Shown in pieces: positions 11,878-47,899 of a DNA stretch of 47,899 nucleotides. The translations under genes and the position numbers were made by a program. Source of the DNA: an uncultured archaeon (GTDB taxonomy: Archaea > Thermoproteota > EX4484-205 > JAAOZP01); the NCBI GenBank assembly GCA_938045545.1, contig CALIBN010000042.1, positions 1 through 47,899 of the forward strand, given 5' to 3'. The notes beneath the pieces were generated by a model. It did not search any database, was not told the origin of the DNA, and saw nothing but the letters and a program-made list of their open reading frames with translations. How positions within the stretch are numbered: position 1 is the first letter of the stretch; each line of letters begins with the position of its first letter.

Positions 11878-14619
11878 ATGAAACACGATTTCGGCGAGGA
11901 CGAGTATCGCCTAGAGTTCCTGAGTGAAGGCAGGTTCACTAGGAGGAGATGTGCTAAGTGCGGCAGGTTCTTCTGGACTCTTGACTCGTCTAAGGAGGAC
12001 TGTGGAGAGTCTCCCTGTTCATCCTATACTTTCATAGGCAGAAGGGTGGGCAGAAACATAGATGATTTAAGCCAGGTTAGGAGCGCTTTTCTGGGCTTCT
12101 TCCAGAATAGGGGTCACGAGGTTATTTCACCGTATCCTGTTGTGTGCAGGTGGAGGGATGATCTTTACCTTACTGACGCGAGCATAGTTGATTTCCAGCC
12201 TTATGTTACAGATGGTATTATTCCTCCACCAGCTAATCCCTTGGTGATTTCCCAGCCCTGTATTCGTCTGGTTGACATCGACCTGGTCGGCAAGACTCTT
12301 GGGAGACACCTCACCATTTTCGAGATGGGCGGCCATCATGCTTTCAACAGCGAGGAAAAAGAGGTCTACTGGAAGGAGGATACTGTGAGATACGGCTTCG
12401 AATTCTTCACCAGGGAAATGGGGGTTAAGGGTGAGGATCTTACTTTCGTCGAAAGTGCTTGGAGCGGGGGTGGAAACGCGGGGCCCTGCTTCGAGGTCAT
12501 TTCACACGGCCTTGAGATTGCTACTTTAGTCTTCATGAAGTATAAGGTTAACCCGGACGGTTCTCTGAGGGAGCTGCCTATTAGAACGGTTGACACAGGA
12601 TACGGGATGGAGAGGATAAACTGGCTTTTAAGCGGGGCTCCAACCGGCTTTCATGCTTTCTACGGTAGTCTTCTCCACGAGATTTCTAAACTGGTTGACA
12701 TCGATGTTCCCCAGGAGCTTCTTAAAGAGTATGGGGTAAGAGTTTCCCTTTCTGAAGGCAGGTTTCTAAGCCCGGCTGAGAGGATTGGGCTCGTCAGGGG
12801 CCTCGGCTTTCCGGATTCCTTCTCAGCTAAGCTTGAAGCAATGGAGAATGTTTTCAAGGCTCTGGATCATGTTAAGAGCTTAGTGTTCATTCTCTCAGAG
12901 GGTGTTGTACCCTCTAACACCGGCGTGGGCTATTTGGCTAGGTTGCTCTTAAGGAAGACAGCCAGGGTTCTGGATAGGCTTGGCGTTAATTCTCTCCTGC
13001 TCGACATGGTTTCATGGGAGGTTGACTACTGGGGTAGGGATTTCCCGAGCCTCTGTGAGCTTAAAGACAGTATTCTGAGACTTGTCGAAATAGAGCTTAA
13101 GAAATACAGGAGGAGTATTGAAGAGGGGGTTAGACGCGTGGAGTCTCTTGTTAAAGAATCCAAGTCATTAGGTGTTGAGAAGCTTGTCGAACTTTACGAT
13201 TCCCACGGTGTTACGCCTGAACAGGTTGCAGAAGTTTTTTCAAAGAAGGGTGTTGAAGTAAGGATTCCGGAGGACTTCTATAGCATGATAGCCTCCAGAC
13301 ATAAACAGCCTAAGGGTCTTGGGGAAGAGGAAGTGGTCACACTAGATTTCGACGAGAAGGCTTTCCCCGAGACTGTTAAATCCTTCTATGAGAATCCTGA
13401 TTTGCTGGAGCTAGAAGCTAAGGTGCTAGGAGTCTTCAGCGATAAGGTTGTTCTCGACCGGACAATCTTCTACCCGGAGGGCGGCGGCCAGCCTGCTGAC
13501 AAAGGTAGGCTCATCTTCAACGGGAAAGAGGCCATGGTGAAGGACGTTAAAAACTTGAATAACCGGATGATCCATTTCATCGAAGGCCCTGTCCCTAGTG
13601 TGGGCAGCACTGTTAAAATGGTTGTTGACTCTGAAAGGCGTCTCCAGCTTAGAAGAGCCCACACTGCGACGCACATTATAAACGCTGCTGCCAGAATGGT
13701 CTTGGGAAACCATGTTTGGCAAGCGGGTGCCCAGAAAGACACGGTTGAATCCAGGCTTGACATTACTCATCCCCTTCCGCTCGCCAATGATGAGATTGAG
13801 AAGATAGAGCGTAAAGCTAATGAAATAGTCATGTTGAACATCGATGTTAAAATACAGGTTCTACCCAGAACTGTAGCCGAGAGGGAGTACGGTTTCAGAA
13901 TATACCAAGGTGGTGCTGTCCCTGGTAAAGAGCTTAGGATCGTCAAGATAGATGGTTTTGACGCTGAAGCCTGTGGAGGGCTTCACGTTAACAAGACTGG
14001 GGACGTTGGGCTCGTGAAGATAGTTAGGGTTGAGAGGATCCAAGACGGTGTTGAAAGAATAGTTTTTCGAGTAGGCTTCTCCTTCTTGGATTACGTGAGG
14101 TCGCTTGAAAACAAGATGTCTAGCTTGGAGAACATTCTAGGTGTTCCAAGGGACAAGATAGTTCAGGAGGCTGAAAGAGTCAGGAGTGAGTTGAAAAACC
14201 TGAGTAAGAAAGTTGAGAAAATATTAGAGAACCAGTTTGACATGCTGGCAGACCGGCTGCTTTCCAAGGCCGTTGAAGAGTCTGGTGTTAGGATCGTGCT
14301 CTATAGTTCCGAAGAACTAGAAATAAGCCATCTCATAAGCCTCGGCGAGAAAATCTCCAGGAAGGAGCCGAGCTCCGTAACAGTGGTAATGTCCCCCGTC
14401 CCAACTGTGCAGTTCGCCGTGTTCGCCGGCGAGAAGGCTCTTGAAAAGGGTGTCGACTGCTCTCTGCTAGCGCGCCGTATTCTTGGCGAAATCGGAGTTG
14501 GCGGAGGAGCCGGAGGCAGGAGAAACTTCGCGAAAGGAGGTTTAGCGGCCAAGATTGACATTAAAACTTTTGAGTCAAAGGCTTTAAAAGCCGTAAGCAG
14601 CATCCTTGCAAAGAGTTAG
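11878..14619 (+). CDS. alaS: Alanine--tRNA ligase (archaeal type)
   Basis: N-terminal CxxC-FWT, QPCIR, HLTIFEM, DTGYGMER, editing HTATH...CGGLH, DHHA1 GGG. Confidence 0.97.
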   Translation: MKHDFGEDEYRLEFLSEGRFTRRRCAKCGRFFWTLDSSKEDCGESPCSSYTFIGRRVGRNIDDLSQVRSAFLGFFQNRGHEVISPYPVVCRWRDDLYLTDASIVDFQPYVTDGIIPPPANPLVISQPCIRLVDIDLVGKTLGRHLTIFEMGGHHAFNSEEKEVYWKEDTVRYGFEFFTREMGVKGEDLTFVESAWSGGGNAGPCFEVISHGLEIATLVFMKYKVNPDGSLRELPIRTVDTGYGMERINWLLSGAPTGFHAFYGSLLHEISKLVDIDVPQELLKEYGVRVSLSEGRFLSPAERIGLVRGLGFPDSFSAKLEAMENVFKALDHVKSLVFILSEGVVPSNTGVGYLARLLLRKTARVLDRLGVNSLLLDMVSWEVDYWGRDFPSLCELKDSILRLVEIELKKYRRSIEEGVRRVESLVKESKSLGVEKLVELYDSHGVTPEQVAEVFSKKGVEVRIPEDFYSMIASRHKQPKGLGEEEVVTLDFDEKAFPETVKSFYENPDLLELEAKVLGVFSDKVVLDRTIFYPEGGGQPADKGRLIFNGKEAMVKDVKNLNNRMIHFIEGPVPSVGSTVKMVVDSERRLQLRRAHTATHIINAAARMVLGNHVWQAGAQKDTVESRLDITHPLPLANDEIEKIERKANEIVMLNIDVKIQVLPRTVAEREYGFRIYQGGAVPGKELRIVKIDGFDAEACGGLHVNKTGDVGLVKIVRVERIQDGVERIVFRVGFSFLDYVRSLENKMSSLENILGVPRDKIVQEAERVRSELKNLSKKVEKILENQFDMLADRLLSKAVEESGVRIVLYSSEELEISHLISLGEKISRKEPSSVTVVMSPVPTVQFAVFAGEKALEKGVDCSLLARRILGEIGVGGGAGGRRNFAKGGLAAKIDIKTFESKALKAVSSILAKS

Positions 14620-18249: not shown

Positions 18250-18391
18250 GGGCCCGTCGCCTAACCTGGACAGCATCGCCTAGAAATGGCGGCAGACTAA
18301 AAAGCCGAGCCCTCTATCATGGCGGGAAAGACTGTTGACGCGCGCGTGGGGGCAAGCTGTAATGATCTGGGTTCAAATCCCAGCGGGCCCG
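18250..18391 (+). tRNA. tRNA-Arg(TCT) with three introns (18272-18285 D-loop; 18296-18309 at 30/31; 18317-18354 at 37/38)
   Basis: GGGCCCG/CGGGCCC acceptor and G73. Three BHBs: CTGG-ACA/CTAG-AAA, CGGC-AGA/GCCG-AGC and CCTC-TAT/GGGG-CAA. The 76-nt mature body matches the Arg(CCT) gene outside the anticodon loop. Confidence 0.85.
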
Positions 18392-41427: not shown

Positions 41428-43317
41428 TTAAGCATTCGAAGTGCCTTCCTGAATCTTCTCCGTAAGCCTCTCTATAATCTTCCGGTACAGATTTCCGAAA
41501 GTCTTGTATAGGAGCTTCGCTACGTCGTAGAAAATCAGTATGAAAAAGACGAATATGGCTAACGCTCCCAGCCTCGCAAGGTTTTCGCCGATGTATGGAA
41601 CCAGTCTAAGTTGAGGAGGAAGATAAATCCAGAGGATTACAGCTAGCAGGATGTAGAGTAGATCGACCAACATGTGTCTGAGAGTGAACTCTGAAACCCG
41701 GAGGAGCATGACTAAGCGTTTAGTAACTATGTCTATTAGAAATTTCAGGGACATCAATATACGATAACCGAAGTATATAGATATGATTAGAAGCAAGGCT
41801 GACATCAAATGGTCCGATTTCAAAACGAGATCATCAAGAGTCACTAGAGTAATATCCGTAACCGCAGGTGTGATCATATGCAGAAAGAGAAACGACAGAG
41901 CAAGCTTAAGCGAGCTGGAGACGAGGGTTTCAATCCTTTTTGTTATCTCTCCCTTTTCAACCGTAACCTCTGGTTTGGGAGCTCTCTTAGCTCTTCCCAG
42001 CCTGCTCTCTCCCCTCCTAGTCCTAATAACCAGAGCAATTGAACATACCAGGTAGAAAAACGGAGCTGCGGCTAAGTAGTACAGGCCGTATAATTGAAAA
42101 GAAATGACCGACGTAAAGAGAACGGTGAAAAGCAGCACATCTCTCGTCGCAGGTATTTTCCTCAAAACCCTCACATTAATATCGGTATTGTTTAAAACTT
42201 GAGCCGCATAGCTTACCAGCATTATGTTGGCTACAGCAAGAATAGTGAGCAGGAAAACATTATCCCCCAATGACAATAGGGGTAATGAAAAACCGATTAC
42301 TATGGCTAAGTCTGAAACGCGGTCCAGCAGAGCGCTGACTTGAAGCCTCCATTTTTCCCTGCCATACAGGTTTACCAGTTCACTGCCCACTTCGCTAAGC
42401 AGGATTGCAAGCCCGACTAGAAGCCCTCCCAGCAGGGATTCTTTAGACGCCAAGAGAAAGCCTGCTGCTAGAGCGACGATCAGAGAAACTAGCGTCACTA
42501 CGAGAGGCTCCCCGTCGAGGCTCCGGTAAAACTTGGTTGAAACACGTGTTGAGACAGGCTTGACGAGGTACGTTGAGACAAGCCCGCTTTCCGTCTTATT
42601 CTCCTTCCTCAGTATTTGCCAGTAGACTTCTCTCCCTCTAACCAAGTCCTCAGGCGTATCTATATCTTTCCAGAGAATTCCAGTTACATCAACGTAATCA
42701 ACCTCATTATCTGTTGAAGCGAGATTCAGCGCATCAGATATTGTCGCATTAGGGCCAAGGCTTTCTATAGTCTTCTCAACATATGTCCTCGCCTTCTCGC
42801 CGCATAGTATAACCCCCGTGTCTATCCCGTGCCTAGGCAAAGCCTTCTTATCCGTGTAGGCCACACCCTGTTCTTTCAACACTATTTTCAACCCTTCCTC
42901 AGCATCAGCCTGAGAAGGCTTCATGTCAAGGCAAACGGTGAACGCAGCTTTCCCACCCGAAGATAAAACCGCCTTAACCATTGTTTTCTCATAAATATGG
43001 TCAGACATTAGGAGCAGAAAACTTTCTGAACCCAATCGTTTCAAAGCCAGGCTGACACTGTAGAGATTCCCGAAATCTTCCATGTCTGTTTCCACAAACT
43101 CGGCTCTGCCACTCGCCTTTTTATCCAGCATGCTTCTAAACTTCGGTCTCGTAACGATCAGGACACGGCTTGGATTAATATCTCTAATCCTGCTTAATAT
43201 GAAGTCGAGTATTGTCACGCCGGGCTCAAGCTCCATGAGGCATTTAGGCGCCTCCTCAGAATAAGGTTTCAGCCTGGAGGCTACTCCTGCAGCAATGATT
43301 ACAACGGGAAGCTGCAA
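41428..43317 (-). CDS. NTP-transferase (cytidylyltransferase) fused to a degenerate CDP-alcohol phosphotransferase and extra TM domain
   Basis: IAAGVASRL..PK, MSDH and WKDIDT are intact. In the membrane domain DxxDGxxAR is replaced by SEVGSELVN. Confidence 0.8.
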   Translation of the reverse strand: MQLPVVIIAAGVASRLKPYSEEAPKCLMELEPGVTILDFILSRIRDINPSRVLIVTRPKFRSMLDKKASGRAEFVETDMEDFGNLYSVSLALKRLGSESFLLLMSDHIYEKTMVKAVLSSGGKAAFTVCLDMKPSQADAEEGLKIVLKEQGVAYTDKKALPRHGIDTGVILCGEKARTYVEKTIESLGPNATISDALNLASTDNEVDYVDVTGILWKDIDTPEDLVRGREVYWQILRKENKTESGLVSTYLVKPVSTRVSTKFYRSLDGEPLVVTLVSLIVALAAGFLLASKESLLGGLLVGLAILLSEVGSELVNLYGREKWRLQVSALLDRVSDLAIVIGFSLPLLSLGDNVFLLTILAVANIMLVSYAAQVLNNTDINVRVLRKIPATRDVLLFTVLFTSVISFQLYGLYYLAAAPFFYLVCSIALVIRTRRGESRLGRAKRAPKPEVTVEKGEITKRIETLVSSSLKLALSFLFLHMITPAVTDITLVTLDDLVLKSDHLMSALLLIISIYFGYRILMSLKFLIDIVTKRLVMLLRVSEFTLRHMLVDLLYILLAVILWIYLPPQLRLVPYIGENLARLGALAIFVFFILIFYDVAKLLYKTFGNLYRKIIERLTEKIQEGTSNA

Positions 43318-43443: not shown

Positions 43444-44286
43444 CTACGTGGTACGCAGTGTTCTCATTGCTTTAATAAAGCTTTCGAAGCATGAACTGTC
43501 AAACGGACCGTCGACCGCACCATCGGGCTCCATGGTCAACAATCCTCCATATCCCCAGTCGTCCCTTATCCTTTTCAAAGCCTCATAGAAACCAGTGTTT
43601 GGATGATCCAAGAACCATTCTCCCTGAAAAAGCTTTCCACGTAAATGGACATTCACTACTTTATCAATAAGCGTCTCAAAACGATACAGCTCATTGTAGA
43701 GGGCTGCCCACCGAAGGTCAAGCGTCACGTAGTCGAAAAGCTTGACTAAAGCAAAGGGCGTGTAACCCTCTGAATGCGTCGGAATATTCTCTACCGAAGC
43801 CTTCACGCTAGGGAATTCACGTGTAACTTCACAGAAAGTTTTTACTATACGGCTTAGGTCGAAACCAGTGGCCCAAGTATCCCATGGATGGAATACGCAG
43901 ACGTTCGCTCCCAGCTCGCTGGCAATAAGTAAAGCATCGTATGCGGCCTGTTTCCCTTTCTCCCAATCGCGCTCCCGGCTTGTGCAAAGATAACTACCAA
44001 TGTCTCTGCTCGCATGTACAGATAATATGGGCAACGCCTCCCTTTTCAAAACATCTAGTATTTCTCCAGCCGTATACTTAGGTGTCTTGGTCCAATCTGC
44101 AAGATCCCCGTCAGTCAAAGGAGGATTATCACTATCCCATTCCGGCTCAAGCTGCGGCTCAAAACCATCCACAACCGACTCGGATAGAATCTTCTTCATC
44201 ACGCCTATAGTGCCGATTAAATCGTAATACTTCTTATCTCCAAGCCTAGCGATCGGAGCGCTGGAAACAGAAATCAAACACTTCAC
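43444..44286 (-). CDS. Sugar phosphate isomerase/AP-endonuclease-2 TIM-barrel family protein
   Basis: Metal-ligand pattern SVHA, VFHP, VEN, TLD, NVHL, TME. Confidence 0.75.
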   Translation of the reverse strand: MKCLISVSSAPIARLGDKKYYDLIGTIGVMKKILSESVVDGFEPQLEPEWDSDNPPLTDGDLADWTKTPKYTAGEILDVLKREALPILSVHASRDIGSYLCTSRERDWEKGKQAAYDALLIASELGANVCVFHPWDTWATGFDLSRIVKTFCEVTREFPSVKASVENIPTHSEGYTPFALVKLFDYVTLDLRWAALYNELYRFETLIDKVVNVHLRGKLFQGEWFLDHPNTGFYEALKRIRDDWGYGGLLTMEPDGAVDGPFDSSCFESFIKAMRTLRTT

Positions 44287-44610: not shown

Positions 44611-44721
44611 CGGGCCCGCTGGGATTTGAACCCAGATCATTACAGCTCGCTCCACAGTTTTACGTTGATAGGAGGCTGCCGCCATTTCTAGGCGATGCTG
44701 TCCAGGTTAGGCGACGGGCCC
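44611..44721 (-). tRNA. tRNA-Arg(CCT) with two introns (44686-44699 D-loop; 44648-44668 at 37/38)
   Basis: On the reverse complement: GCAGC-CTCCTA^A-GCTGT after splicing. BHBs CTGG-ACA/CTAG-AAA and CTCC-TAT/GGAG-CGA. Mature length 76 nt. Confidence 0.92.
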
Positions 44722-45088
44722 AATTACCTTTACTTTTCCAGGCCTTTTATATTTTCTGTCATTTTTATACGTGGTTTTTAAAGCTTGTTTCTAGAATTTG
44801 TCTAGTTTTAGAGTTTTTAAACTTGAACAAGTACTCCTCTCAGTTACTAGTTCTATGCTCTTTTTCCTAAATAGACTTATGAAGCATCGTAAAACGATAG
44901 CCTCTTCCAATTGCGATCACCCGCTACTTTTTAAGACGCTTCACTAGGCTATTTTACAGGATGAAGTAACAACGGTATTAGCCCAGCTTTAATAGGGCCT
45001 CCACAATTATACCTTACCATTGCTGTTGTAACTAACATTGTGTAAAAAATCTTAATAAACATGCATCAGGATAGTCTCTGAACCAAGG

Positions 45089-45188
45089 GCGGGGGTTGCC
45101 GAGCCTGGTCAAACGGGACTAGACTAGAGGCGCTGGACTTAAGATCCAGTCCCGAAGGGGTTCGTGGGTTCAAATCCCACCCCCCGCA
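45089..45188 (+). tRNA. tRNA-Leu(TAA) with 15-nt D-loop intron (45113-45127)
   Basis: GCGGGGG/CCCCCGC acceptor, CTGGA-CTTAAGA-TCCAG anticodon arm, BHB GGTC-AAA...GACT-AGA. Mature length 85 nt. Confidence 0.93.
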
Positions 45189-45194
45189 CTTCTC
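45149..45194 (+). repeat. 46-bp direct repeat shared with 2119-2164 (tRNA-Leu 3' half plus 6 nt beyond)
   Basis: GTCCCGAAGGGGTTCGTGGGTTCAAATCCCACCC[T/C]CCGCACTTCTC with one mismatch (2153 vs 45183). Confidence 0.85.
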
Positions 45195-45852
45195 AGATGA
45201 GCCATACCAGAACCTCGTCTCCCCACATATCTATATCTCCGATCTTAAGGTCGTTGACGTCCTTCCGCCAGTCATAACCCAAAACTCGTTCCGCAAACCC
45301 TCTTTCGATCACGTCGCTACTTAAATAATGCATGAAATCCTTCATGGGTGAGAAATCCTCATGAATCATCTCTATCACTATCTTATTCGCGATCTTAGAG
45401 CTCAGCTCGCAGAGGAGGTCCGTCTGAGGGATGAACTTGATCTTTCGCCCTCGTGCTACAGATTTCACCCTTGGCTCTCTGCTGAATTTTTCGACGATAG
45501 CCCTTTCTCGTTCCTTGAGCTCTTTTTCCACTTCCTCCATGGATTTTCGATATACCTCTCCGCTAGAAAGGATCTCGTCGAATAACTCGATGGAAACAGA
45601 AGTGACTTTAACATCATCCTCATCAAGCGCCACATAGAATAGGCCCTCAGCCAGTTCTCCAACGCTTTTGGGGTCACTCGTATAAGCGACGATGTAATAA
45701 CAAATGCCCTCGTCCCTTCTTCTGGCGGAGATCTCTATGCAGCATTCCTTTATATTCTCCTTCCATCTCTTACTGATATACTTCTCACAATTCTTCCTAA
45801 CATCGTCAAAATCCTCGCCCCACACCCAAAGAGTAGCGACCATAGGTGTCAT
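45193..45852 (-). CDS. Hypothetical acidic protein
   Basis: 219-aa ORF with a GGAGG Shine-Dalgarno, 5 bp downstream of the LAGLIDADG gene; its stop lies 4 bp from the tRNA 3' end. Confidence 0.75.
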   Translation of the reverse strand: MTPMVATLWVWGEDFDDVRKNCEKYISKRWKENIKECCIEISARRRDEGICYYIVAYTSDPKSVGELAEGLFYVALDEDDVKVTSVSIELFDEILSSGEVYRKSMEEVEKELKERERAIVEKFSREPRVKSVARGRKIKFIPQTDLLCELSSKIANKIVIEMIHEDFSPMKDFMHYLSSDVIERGFAERVLGYDWRKDVNDLKIGDIDMWGDEVLVWLI

Positions 45853-45857
45853 TCTAA

Positions 45858-46802
45858 CTAATCCTCCTCCTTTTTCTTTCTTCCATTTATTAGCTTTATT
45901 AATTCAAATTTCCTTTTATGCTCCTCCTTTTCAGACCCTATCTCCTCTATGAACCTTAGGTGATCTTCTTCTGGAATACTGAAATAATAGTTATATTCTT
46001 TCCTATGTCGTCCAGGAGCGGGCTTCTCATATTTTTCATGGATTTCGCTCGGATGAAATCCTAAATCTTCAAACATTTCTTTTAATTCGTTTAGCCCTTC
46101 CTTATAAGACGAATAGATTCGAATGGCATGCTCTCCTTCTTTAGTCATAGAGACGTTACCGTCCCCGGAAAAGAAACCCCTTAGATAAGCCCTCTTACCT
46201 TCGTCGTCAAGGTACTGTATAGGTGGGTGGAACTCGTAGGGCCCAGGTCCCTTAATCCCGAGATCCCATAGGTCATAGGCTACTTTCTTACTATAAATTG
46301 CTACATGGTAATGCTCCTCTTCTCCCTCCTTCGTTTTATGATGTTTAATATGCTCATGGGGAGTCATATTATAATTATCTCCGGCCAGTTCCTTAAAAAC
46401 TCCGATAAGCTCAGGACTTACACTTGTCAGAGAGACCTCGTATCCAACACTACTTCCTCCCTTTCCTTTATATTTACAAATAGTGCCGTCTGCGGCTGTT
46501 AAGCCACATAACTCTGCCTTTTCCGGACTAAGTATTTCTCTAATTCCCTTTTCTGAAACCTCTAAGTTCATCCCATGGCTTAGCCTGAAGACGGTTCTGT
46601 CCCCTTCGACTCTGGCTTCGGAAAAGATCCCTACGACCTCGCCGCTTTTAAGCAGCTCATAACCACCGCCCTCGGCTTCGCGGACCTCGTAGTTCCTAAA
46701 GGTTTTTGCAATGTGAAATATCTCATCTTCTTTTTCTCCTCGAATCTGTTCTCCCTCGAAAAATCTCCTTTCGTACTGCTTTATCCTCGAGCCGCCGCCC
46801 AT
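45858..46802 (-). CDS. Free-standing double-motif LAGLIDADG (intein DOD-type) endonuclease-like protein
   Basis: Motifs ELCGLTAADG and AYLRGFFSGDG, with a C-terminal RFIEEIG block. No HINT splicing termini. Confidence 0.85.
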   Translation of the reverse strand: MGGGSRIKQYERRFFEGEQIRGEKEDEIFHIAKTFRNYEVREAEGGGYELLKSGEVVGIFSEARVEGDRTVFRLSHGMNLEVSEKGIREILSPEKAELCGLTAADGTICKYKGKGGSSVGYEVSLTSVSPELIGVFKELAGDNYNMTPHEHIKHHKTKEGEEEHYHVAIYSKKVAYDLWDLGIKGPGPYEFHPPIQYLDDEGKRAYLRGFFSGDGNVSMTKEGEHAIRIYSSYKEGLNELKEMFEDLGFHPSEIHEKYEKPAPGRHRKEYNYYFSIPEEDHLRFIEEIGSEKEEHKRKFELIKLINGRKKKEED

Positions 46803-47899
46803 CTATTTCGTCCTCGACAAAGCTTTTTTCATATCGAGCAGGTTGTGAAGGACTAACTTACGGAAGCCCGCTTCCCTGTCGCTGAGCATCAGGTCGATTA
46901 TCTCCTGAGGCATTAATCCTTCACATACCTCGCAATCGCACTCTTCAAACCGGATTTCAGGATCTCTAAGGTCATAAGACCAGCCGTTCTTAAAATAGCA
47001 TCCATGCTTCGCCTCTAGAAACCAAGAAAGATTGCTGTAGCCACTTATCTCCTTATGCTTAAGTCTGTGGCCAACACCGTAAATCAGCAGCTCAAGATCC
47101 TTTTTTATTCTCTTAGAAATCCACTTCAGGCTCATCAGGGCGCTGGGCAAAAGGTCCTCCAAAAAATTGTCCTCTAATAATTCTCTACTGGGCATTGCGA
47201 AGGAAACGTAGCCTATTTCAACCTGCTTCCTAATAGCCCAGTCAACTTGGAGGGCGTTAGCACCCTTAACTAGGCCGATCAGAGGAATATCCAGCTTGAG
47301 AAAGTCATTCGCTAGGGAAACAAGCTTTACCGTCTGAGACCAGGATAGAAACAAAGGGTCATCTACATAGGTATAGTTATCAGGTATCGTTGTAGCGTCA
47401 GGCCTAAGGTTATTAATCAGCTCGAAATAGTCTTCCATCCTAAGCTTATCAAGCAGCTCGTCGGGCATAACTAGCGATAGGAAAATCCTGCCGTTGAATC
47501 CCAGATAGTCGTGCAAGCCTTTTGAAGAAGCCTTATTCAATACTTCCTCATTTACCAAGAGTTGCCAGAGAGGGACGAAAATCTCAGGCAATTCGATACC
47601 GTGCTTCCAAAACCATGACCTGCTGTCAACAGCATCTATCTCAGGCACAAAACTCTTAAAACCAACCTTAACCATTAACTTCCTGTTTAAAGATGAGTTC
47701 TGAGGGGGAACCCGTTTTCCGCTTTTAACTGGGCAGTAGGGTCTGAGTATGCAGAAAGACCTTGGGAAGGTTATCCCGGTGTATTGAAAACCCCTCTGGC
47801 ACTGGGCCACGAGACACATCTTAAAAGAGCAACCGCGGCAAAGCCTTAAAAAGAAATAGTAACAATCCTTGCAGCCGTCAAAGCCACACCACCCTTTCC
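46803..47899 (-). CDS. Cys-rich N-terminal domain plus divergent TGT/DpdA-like barrel protein (5'-truncated by window edge)
   Basis: The frame stays open to the edge (KGWCGFDGCKDC...CRGC before the track's Met). It contains IPDNYTYVDDP, IGLVKG, IYGVG, SW..A..G and the C-terminal Zn site CDCEVC...HNL. Confidence 0.65.
   Translation of the reverse strand, partial: KGWCGFDGCKDCYYFFLRLCRGCSFKMCLVAQCQRGFQYTGITFPRSFCILRPYCPVKSGKRVPPQNSSLNRKLMVKVGFKSFVPEIDAVDSRSWFWKHGIELPEIFVPLWQLLVNEEVLNKASSKGLHDYLGFNGRIFLSLVMPDELLDKLRMEDYFELINNLRPDATTIPDNYTYVDDPLFLSWSQTVKLVSLANDFLKLDIPLIGLVKGANALQVDWAIRKQVEIGYVSFAMPSRELLEDNFLEDLLPSALMSLKWISKRIKKDLELLIYGVGHRLKHKEISGYSNLSWFLEAKHGCYFKNGWSYDLRDPEIRFEECDCEVCEGLMPQEIIDLMLSDREAGFRKLVLHNLLDMKKALSRTK

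Follow-up and report, generated by a model that had tools for sequence, protein, structure and literature searches.

What are the three genes that stand behind the tRNA-Leu(UAA) gene at one end of this archaeal contig, and how did they come to lie there? The window, meaning the whole stretch of DNA that was analyzed, is the entire contig C42 (47,899 nt) of a 51-contig, 2.03-Mb genome (G000); the source data were metagenome-assembled genomes (MAGs) throughout. The three genes encode a protein with the fold of the tRNA-guanine transglycosylases (TGT) (g1), a LAGLIDADG nuclease (g2), and an acidic orphan protein (g3). An earlier note on this DNA had read them as a possible modification and nuclease pair with an inhibitor, carried on an integrated element. 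Our comparisons indicate that the trio is probably a whole, self-contained selfish element, which bears a 44-nt direct repeat at both ends and keeps the tRNA gene whole.

The insertion was examined by comparing the locus with the same site in congeneric genomes. In G007, homologues of 41428..43317 and 43444..44286 of the window are followed by tRNA-Leu(UAA) and then directly by the sequence that flanks the far end of the element on contig C47, with no cassette in between; the esterase-like gene of that flank shows 85 to 90% protein identity. G012 has the same junction of tRNA and flank without the cassette, and the C47 gene lies another 1.5 kb on. Only broken g3 remnants were found at tRNA-Leu(UAA) in G014 and G016, and G011 holds a full copy at this tRNA gene with a 50-nt repeat. 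These empty, decayed, and occupied sites show insertion polymorphism at tRNA-Leu(UAA).

The far end of the element lies beyond the window. The last 128 bases of the window (47772-47899) are identical to the ends of C47 and C10, indicating that the assembly broke inside a repeat. On C47, the GTG start of g1 lies two codons past the window end. A 71-nt segment that includes an A/T-rich, promoter-like stretch comes next, and the 44-nt repeat of the tRNA-Leu 3' end stands behind it. We infer from these sequences that C42 joins C47. Joined in this way, the element measures about 2.78 kb plus one repeat, contains g1 to g3 only, and has a GC content of 44.6%, compared with 48.0% for the genome. The earlier note had proposed looking for que/dpd, ParB, or integrase genes past the contig end, where we found only two codons, the 71-nt leader, and the repeat. 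Its view of the locus as integrated mobile DNA was upheld, but the genes are not cargo on a larger element, as the three of them make up the whole.

The layout of the genes agreed with the earlier description. All three are minus-strand open reading frames at the contig end, where g1 (46803..47897) runs off the contig. When the junctions were read base by base, the g1 stop TAG directly abutted the g2 ATG (0-bp gap), the g2 stop was 5 bp from the g3 ATG, and the g3 stop TGA was followed by 4 bp and then by the discriminator base of tRNA-Leu(UAA). The tRNA gene is also real, with a 5' end about 25 nt to the left of the one first noted. ARAGORN called a tRNA-Leu(taa) at 45113-45189, and Infernal RF00005 scored just 28.2 bits there; both calls represent the 3' three quarters of the gene. 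The tRNA-Sec model (spanning 45087-45189) and the alignment of orthologues from seven congeneric genomes place the full gene at about 45088-45188, about 101 nt long, and show that about 15 extra nt are inserted in its D-arm region. Calls of tRNA genes in these genomes are incomplete, because many of them carry introns. The orthologues in G007 (L075 4483-4621) and G010 (L076 4849-4989) have about 15 nt more inserted past the anticodon, and their D-arm insertion is longer; neither addition is present in the gene of the window, so that the intron content of a single tRNA varies within the genus. The features of the locus are listed in Table 1.

Table 1. Features of the inserted element and its target at the end of the window
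Feature	Positions	Strand	Basis or continuation
tRNA-Leu(UAA), intact target gene, with non-canonical insertion in the D-arm region	45088..45188	+	ARAGORN, Infernal, orthologues in 7 congeneric genomes
Proximal 44-nt direct repeat, from 3' strand of anticodon stem to discriminator	45145..45188	+	Distal copy G000:C47:28886-28929, 43/44 identical
4-bp spacer from tRNA end to g3 stop; first bases of the element	45189..45192	.	Divergence from empty sites begins here
g3, 219-aa acidic orphan	45193..45852	-	
g2, 314-aa single-chain LAGLIDADG nuclease, I-DmoI type	45858..46802	-	
g1, TGT-fold protein, 366 aa in full; first two codons beyond contig end	46803..47899	-	
In-window part of the inserted element of about 2.8 kb	45189..47899	-	Continues on C47 with 71-nt leader and 44-nt distal repeat

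The element is not confined to this site. When G000 was searched by tblastn for matches to the three proteins, 11 copies or remnants were located. Seven are full-length cassettes (C42, C18, C40, C12, C10, and two on C11, named C11a and C11b), four of which have at least one gene frameshifted or broken (C11b, C40, C12, and C10), and the remaining four are decayed pieces (second sites on C12 and C10, C16, and C47). Nine of the 11 lie 4 to 151 nt from one of the 42 tRNA genes found, and only about 0.6% of the genome is that close to a tRNA end. Of the other two, one abuts the 3' end of a ham1-type gene and one lies at no recognized target. The targets include at least eight different tRNA species and a protein gene.

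The linkage of the three genes elsewhere, which the earlier note had asked to be tested, was found as well. Of 48 related loci drawn from species genomes, 30 have matches to the complete trio, arranged g1-g2-g3 on a single strand, and four more showed a conserved variant in which g3 is inverted upstream of g1. A tRNA call stands directly beside the cassette in 23 of the 48 loci (13 convergent after g3, 5 upstream of g1, 1 on both sides, and 4 of the conserved variant at tRNA-Gly(UCC)). In addition, three loci have a tRNA near a truncated cassette, one has a tRNA about 900 nt off, two have a tRNA-like repeat only, and four are members of the ham1 lineage. No target was found at six loci, and the remaining nine are cut by a contig end or have g3 missing.

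To search for flanking repeats in the 31 copies with both flanks, the 500 nt ahead of g1 were compared with 480 nt spanning the end of g3. Repeats of 32 to 135 nt were found in 14 copies. Twelve of these are 3' parts of tRNA genes of about 23 to 64 nt, some of which overrun the tRNA end by 9 to 28 nt and reach into the final codons of g3, and two are the 3' end of ham1 (135 nt and perfect in L037, 46 nt and diverged in L033). The full tRNA gene stands either after g3 in convergent orientation or before g1 on the same strand, and the fragment is at the far end in either case; both orientations relative to the tRNA are found.

The consistent siting beside tRNA genes, together with the fold of a tRNA-binding enzyme in g1, would also suit a host module for the processing, repair, or modification of tRNA genes, which was duplicated along with them. 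We consider this scarcely credible, since empty orthologous sites with a normal tRNA exist, at least 7 of the 11 G000 copies are broken or decayed, one lineage resides at a protein gene, and the element has a lower GC content than the genome.

Several features were seen at individual copies. Four G000 contigs end in the same stretch of 128 to 141 nt, the 5' end of g1 (C42 47772-47899, C11 60329-60456, C47 29001-29128, and C10 110112-110239), indicating that copies of the element cause contig breaks in these MAGs. The C40 copy has a palindrome, GCGCGCGC, about 35 nt beyond its distal repeat (G000:C40 ~12525-12545). Just outside the distal repeat of C11a, at G000:C11:30183-30770 (minus strand), lies a frame resembling radical S-adenosylmethionine proteins (CxxxCxxC, 'ETNG') with an in-frame stop that divides it into pieces of 87 and 108 aa; bordering the insertion, it could represent a disrupted gene or one whose stop is recoded. 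L031 consists of a complete cassette, a tRNA, and a 32-nt repeat on a 2950-base contig of a MAG labeled Fervidobacterium, a bacterium, and is more likely a mis-binned archaeal contig than a case of transfer.

Next, we examined the evolution and distribution of the cassette. A search for g3, taken as the marker of the cassette, gave matches in 22 of the 301 genomes sampled from the phylum. The order to which the window belongs, with 26 genomes, accounts for every one of the 22, and none of the 275 others had a match. The ratios of nonsynonymous to synonymous substitution rates (dN/dS) between the window copy and divergent intact copies were 0.04 to 0.17 for the three genes, with dS saturated in several pairs, and show by sequence comparison that all three genes are under purifying selection. 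Compared with L009, the window is 93 to 100% identical over the 3' end of g1, g2, g3, and the tRNA and 69 to 85% identical over the rest of g1. Compared with C11b, it is identical over 141 nt at the g1 5' end, after which the identity is 75 to 85%, 58 to 65%, and about 40% across g1, g2, and g3, respectively. On these identity profiles the copies are mosaic. The ham1 and tRNA-Gly lineages formed supported clades in the g1 tree (100/100 and 95/99, respectively; IQ-TREE), which lacks the window copy; a FastTree tree was built on 33 rows, and both trees leave out copies with internal stops or fewer than 300 aligned residues. Close relatives have different targets, namely Leu in the window and Met in C11b, Leu in L013 and Glu in L016, and Ala in C11a and Thr in L022 and L025. 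Such switches between close relatives suggest that the target may be set by DNA homology and could be re-set when a new 3' end is captured.

The g2 protein matched the Pfam family LAGLIDADG_3 (PF14528) with E 6.6e-19 and 68.4 bits, compared with a cutoff of 22.5. A profile of 20 homologues matched I-DmoI (E 3e-11) over g2 residues of about 98 to 281, and g2 as a single-sequence query against PDB sequences gave no match. The PADLOC homing endonuclease model reached E 0.003. The acidic residues of both motifs, which the earlier note had seen in the window, are conserved among the homologues: D105 is replaced by Glu in 2 of 20, and D214 is invariant. Judged from these residues, the nuclease looks active. 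Like I-DmoI and other free-standing or intron-borne archaeal LAGLIDADG enzymes, g2 is a single chain with two motifs and the acidic residues kept. In contrast to them, it does not lie in an rRNA intron, has a conserved N-terminal extension of about 95 aa without any match, and always travels with g1 and g3, and the insertion of its element duplicates the target rather than splitting it.

No integrase or transposase was found in g1 to g3 by scans with Pfam, NCBIfam, PHROGs, and PADLOC, which returned only a weak TGT match and the LAGLIDADG domain. Because the LAGLIDADG nuclease is the only recognizable DNA enzyme of the unit, g2 is our candidate for the maker of the break. The reading we prefer, at somewhat less than even confidence, is a nuclease-initiated, homology-dependent integration. 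The element would carry its own copy of the 3' end of the target, and g2 would break either the target or this copy. The break would be repaired by recombination between the two short homologous segments, either of the Campbell type or by cutting and rejoining of matching overhangs. This repair would insert the element and leave the homology as a direct repeat whose length varies from copy to copy, and by picking up a different 3' end the element would switch to another target. The variable length and position of the repeats, the two orientations, and the many targets fit homology borne by the element better than a fixed att core with one integrase.

The same repeats bear on a different reading, in which the cassette is a nonautonomous passenger that a tyrosine recombinase encoded elsewhere, in the host or on another element, integrates and excises in trans. 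In that case the repeats would be common att sites located in the 3' ends of tRNA genes, and the three genes would serve another selfish purpose, such as maintenance or the killing of cells that lose the element. Integrase-bearing elements and proviruses of tRNA genes share with the cassette the integration at the 3' part of a tRNA gene, a repeat that restores the gene, and an empty site in relatives, and repeats that run from within a tRNA to its 3' end are described as a classical integrase signature in the available part of PMC2853133. In addition, G000 has four Phage_integrase (PF00589) genes above the Pfam cutoff. However, these genes are on other contigs or at least 10 kb away, no integrase was found within or beside any of the 11 G000 copies, and the element itself encodes no tyrosine or serine recombinase, DDE transposase, or Cas1. 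One recombinase could hardly serve at least eight tRNA species and a protein gene, and the length and position of the repeats vary even between close relatives, in both orientations. The three genes are moreover always carried along under purifying selection. We therefore consider a passenger cassette unlikely.

Another alternative is classical allelic homing only, in which g2 cuts empty alleles and the element is copied in by gene conversion, be it from another chromosome copy or from transferred DNA. The duplicated 3' end would then be left over from the illegitimate insertion with which each site was first occupied. Within one genus, orthologous sites are found occupied, empty, or decayed, which is the homing cycle. 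A precedent is given by mobile open reading frames of fungal mitochondria, where, in the available part of PMC6279837, LAGLIDADG or GIY-YIG genes lie between a gene and its duplicated C-terminal segment, with the same layout of intact target gene, endonuclease gene, and displaced copy of the target 3' end. Unlike these, the present element is found on archaeal chromosomes, mostly at tRNA targets, with three conserved genes, both orientations, and many targets per genome. Allelic homing would not explain why a new repeat arises at many targets and in both orientations or why g1 and g3 are needed, and the whole target sequence is kept in the occupied locus. For these reasons, this explanation seems very improbable to us.

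Several points also weigh against nuclease-initiated integration. The usual site of a nuclease such as g2 is about 20 bp long. The 44-nt duplication keeps every stretch of the empty site of up to 44 nt, so the g2 site should survive in the occupied locus; unlike in classical homing, a protection step would have to be added, and none was identified. The protection could be supplied by g1 or g3. No repeat above chance was found in 17 of the 31 comparable copies, including the C12 and C10 copies of G000. In C11a, L011, and L013 the repeat passes the tRNA end into the last codons of g3, which a simple model can accommodate only by re-invasion of sites that bear remnants. The 128-nt overlap through which C42 and C47 were joined is also present in C10, and the join was chosen by the tRNA-Leu fragment and synteny. 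The integrase in trans considered above would likewise count against it. Finally, no excision joint, whether a deletion between repeats or a circle junction, was seen in four public runs that hold part of the C11a copy; this copy is partly present in seven public runs from three studies, all kept as contigs, and because contigs drop rare variants this null result says nothing on excision.

The g1 protein was then examined as a possible partner of the nuclease. A search of 5.8 billion proteins found 107 relatives, of which all those named by their sources are called hypothetical protein, in records labeled as Candidatus Brockarchaeota or Thermoproteota MAGs. When 25 members were combined into a profile, its single match among solved proteins was ArcTGT (1iq8), over the whole barrel (E 1.9e-6). 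The AlphaFold2 model had a predicted local distance difference test score (pLDDT) above 90 at residues 70 to 360 (mean of 81.8, with the first 62 residues below 50), and a Foldseek search with this model again gave 1iq8 as the best match (E 3e-13), followed by bacterial TGTs. The Zn ligands C320/C322/C325/H351 (CxCxxC...H) are invariant in the 25 sequences and align to the Zn region of ArcTGT. The TGT fold proposed in the earlier note was thus borne out. The scores of g1 nevertheless stay under the curated cutoffs, with 18.8 versus 26.3 bits for Pfam TGT (PF01702) and 14.2 versus 350 for NCBIfam TgtA, and scans with PHROGs and PADLOC gave nothing significant.

The active site is altered in the way that the earlier note had suspected from the loss of the DSG motif and the nucleophile Asp. 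In the one HMMER alignment from which the correspondence was taken, and in which the nearby invariant D146 and E147 of g1 were not placed in three dimensions, the general acid/base D95 of ArcTGT aligns to the invariant Ser141 of g1, the nucleophile D249 to Ser288 (Ile or Ala in deep branches), and the base-binding D130 to the invariant Asp173. All three Asp residues are invariant in DpdA and TGT, and Ala at either of the positions missing in g1 abolishes exchange by DpdA, as stated in the available part of PMC10164549. Since two of the three catalytic Asp residues are gone and the Zn site and fold are kept, g1 by this alignment has the TGT fold and yet is not a transglycosylase of the TGT/DpdA kind. 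It shares with ArcTGT/TgtA (1iq8, PF01702) and DpdA the TIM barrel, the C-terminal Zn subdomain, and the base-binding Asp (D130/D173). It differs from them in the two Ser replacements, in the absence of the C-terminal C1/C2/PUA domains, in an added N-terminal region with nine Cys, and in its place in a mobile cassette rather than a que/dpd context. We also tried g1 as an ordinary subunit of the archaeosine pathway (ArcS/TgtA2-like) and rejected this, as it has no PUA domain, is multicopy and decaying, and lies inside an insertion.

The Cys-rich region, in which the earlier note counted at least nine residues, has nine within the first 55 residues, all invariant or nearly so in 25 homologues. 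In radical S-adenosylmethionine enzymes, the CxxxCxxC cluster motif lies within a partial TIM barrel; the Cys motif of g1 is in a separate region about 60 aa before the barrel, modeled with a pLDDT below 50, and has no match to Pfam Radical_SAM. The stretch is covered by 23 of the 25 aligned homologues: the spacing is Cx3Cx2C in 20 of them and Cx4Cx2C in the other three, namely the window copy and two of its close relatives. A search of ESM Atlas with the g1 N terminus gave no usable match. The conserved Cys pattern suggests that this region likely holds one or two metal clusters. We consider it most likely that g1 binds or processes nucleic acid at the site, be it a tRNA gene, a tRNA-like structure, or a DNA end, possibly by means of an Fe-S domain. 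Because the ham1 lineage targets a protein gene, g1 is not tied to tRNA genes alone. A predicted complex of g1 and g2 reached a median score of 0.31, where the mark was 0.32 and controls gave 0.00; this speaks for binding no more than against it.

These properties bear on whether the trio is a selfish unit like a restriction-modification (RM) system, a reading close to that of the earlier note. Here DNA would be changed or shielded by g1, through base exchange of a non-canonical kind or by holding a flipped base; g2 would cut what is left unprotected, under regulation or inhibition by g3, and the unit would spread with long target duplication. RM units without mobility genes are reported in the available part of PMC2853133 to leave long target duplications of variable length on insertion, in one case at a whole tRNA gene (Furuta, Abe and Kobayashi 2010). 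They are likewise small, lack an integrase or transposase, and have long variable repeats (>30 bp) that are single in the empty genome. The 44 nt of the present element exceed this length and a nuclease is present; canonical modification by g1 is unlikely from its residues. The RM units are bacterial pairs of restriction and modification genes, and the survey retained no archaeal case in the part of it available; here the nuclease is of the homing type. Neither these units nor the mitochondrial open reading frames have a TGT-fold partner or a three-gene module.

An RM-like unit would supply the protection step that nuclease-initiated integration lacks, and g1 does keep the base-binding Asp173 and the Zn subdomain. 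Against this stand the two lost Asp residues, the absence of preQ0/que genes and of a DpdB-like ATPase from the element, and PADLOC values of just E 0.029 for TGT (Dpd) and of E 0.003 for the homing endonuclease. Among the neighbors of the cassette, none of those of a Dpd island (dpdB-like ATPase, preQ0 synthesis, and restriction genes) was found; the cassette is bordered by the tRNA at one end and by host genes at the other. Moreover, LAGLIDADG enzymes have long, rare sites that are suited to homing rather than restriction. The DpdA-like modification and restriction island envisaged in the earlier note was accordingly not supported, and we judge an RM-like unit distinctly unlikely.

Under the preferred nuclease-initiated reading, g1 may take a more direct part. 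A version that we regard as doubtful is that insertion proceeds by a so far undescribed mechanism without any recombinase or transposase, in which g2 and g1, as a TGT-fold protein that binds nucleic acid and bears Fe-S, would insert a circular or linear copy of the element wherever the chromosome matches the 3' end that it carries.

The third protein gave few clues from homology. It has a pI of 4.9 and no family in Pfam, NCBIfam, PHROGs, or PADLOC, and its 25 relatives besides the protein of the window are all unnamed or hypothetical. The predicted fold (pLDDT 93.5) has two alpha/beta domains linked by a long helix. A Foldseek search of the model against the PDB found nothing at E <= 0.001, and a search of ESM Atlas gave no usable match. 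In a VIA-align wide search, the top Z score was 6.3, over residues 1 to 94 only, to designed proteins and little-finger or ATP-grasp subdomains, a score too low to imply anything beyond an alpha/beta arrangement of a common sort. We take g3 as a putative accessory protein to which we assign no specific role.

In addition, of 38 distant homologues of g1 that were scanned, 11 are fusions that bear a metallophosphoesterase domain at the C terminus. These proteins are about 530 to 620 aa long, and their TGT-like domain is 24 to 28% identical to g1. Fusion-type genes are present in G000 (C10:56595-57668, C16:33438-34504, and C10:88483-88857) and at other loci (L080-L090 and L100-L108), with several copies per genome in this genus (four in G007) and in other Thermoproteota; the sole source-named member of the cluster is Candidatus Culexmicrobium. 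The shared unit of the family is 2.0 to 2.6 kb. None of the six units examined had direct repeats flanking the fusion gene, and an ARAGORN tRNA was found within 1.5-kb flanks at only 1 of 11 loci, the G000 copy. Without repeats and with so few tRNA neighbors, this sister family is not shown to be mobile. The fusions fit a partnership between a TGT-like domain and a phosphoesterase.

Elsewhere in the window, a tRNA-like gene at 44611-44722 (minus strand) has matching acceptor ends, a T-arm, and long internal insertions and was called by neither ARAGORN nor Infernal RF00005. A second copy at 18250-18391 shares with it blocks of 37 and 46 nt at 100% identity. Its 25-nt 3' end is also found at three called tRNA genes (on C18, C17, and C12), and a 40-nt piece is 95 to 98% identical in eight congeneric genomes. 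The gene at 44611-44722 is probably a multi-intron tRNA missed by standard tools.

A full-text search, which did not cover subscription journals, returned no paper pairing Brockarchaeota with LAGLIDADG, and no such element was found by title or abstract among the listed papers on transglycosylase, LAGLIDADG, tRNA gene, mobile element, and archaea. To our knowledge, almost every integrating element brings its own recombinase or transposase. The present family reaches many tRNA genes, along with one protein gene, equipped with nothing beyond a homing-type nuclease, a TGT-fold protein that is disarmed, and an orphan. Should these three proteins suffice, they would represent a new route of site-specific DNA insertion in archaea, and a target set by homology would, if true, be a useful property for the engineering of thermophile genomes. 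The TGT superfamily gains a branch with a function other than transglycosylation, and under the doubtful version without a recombinase g1 would be its first member recruited to DNA mobility. For annotation, the element accounts for a set of hypothetical proteins that is met repeatedly, and for many of the contig breaks, in the MAGs of hot-spring Brockarchaeota. The family is also a natural system in which to study how the tRNA genes of compact genomes serve selfish DNA as safe places to land.

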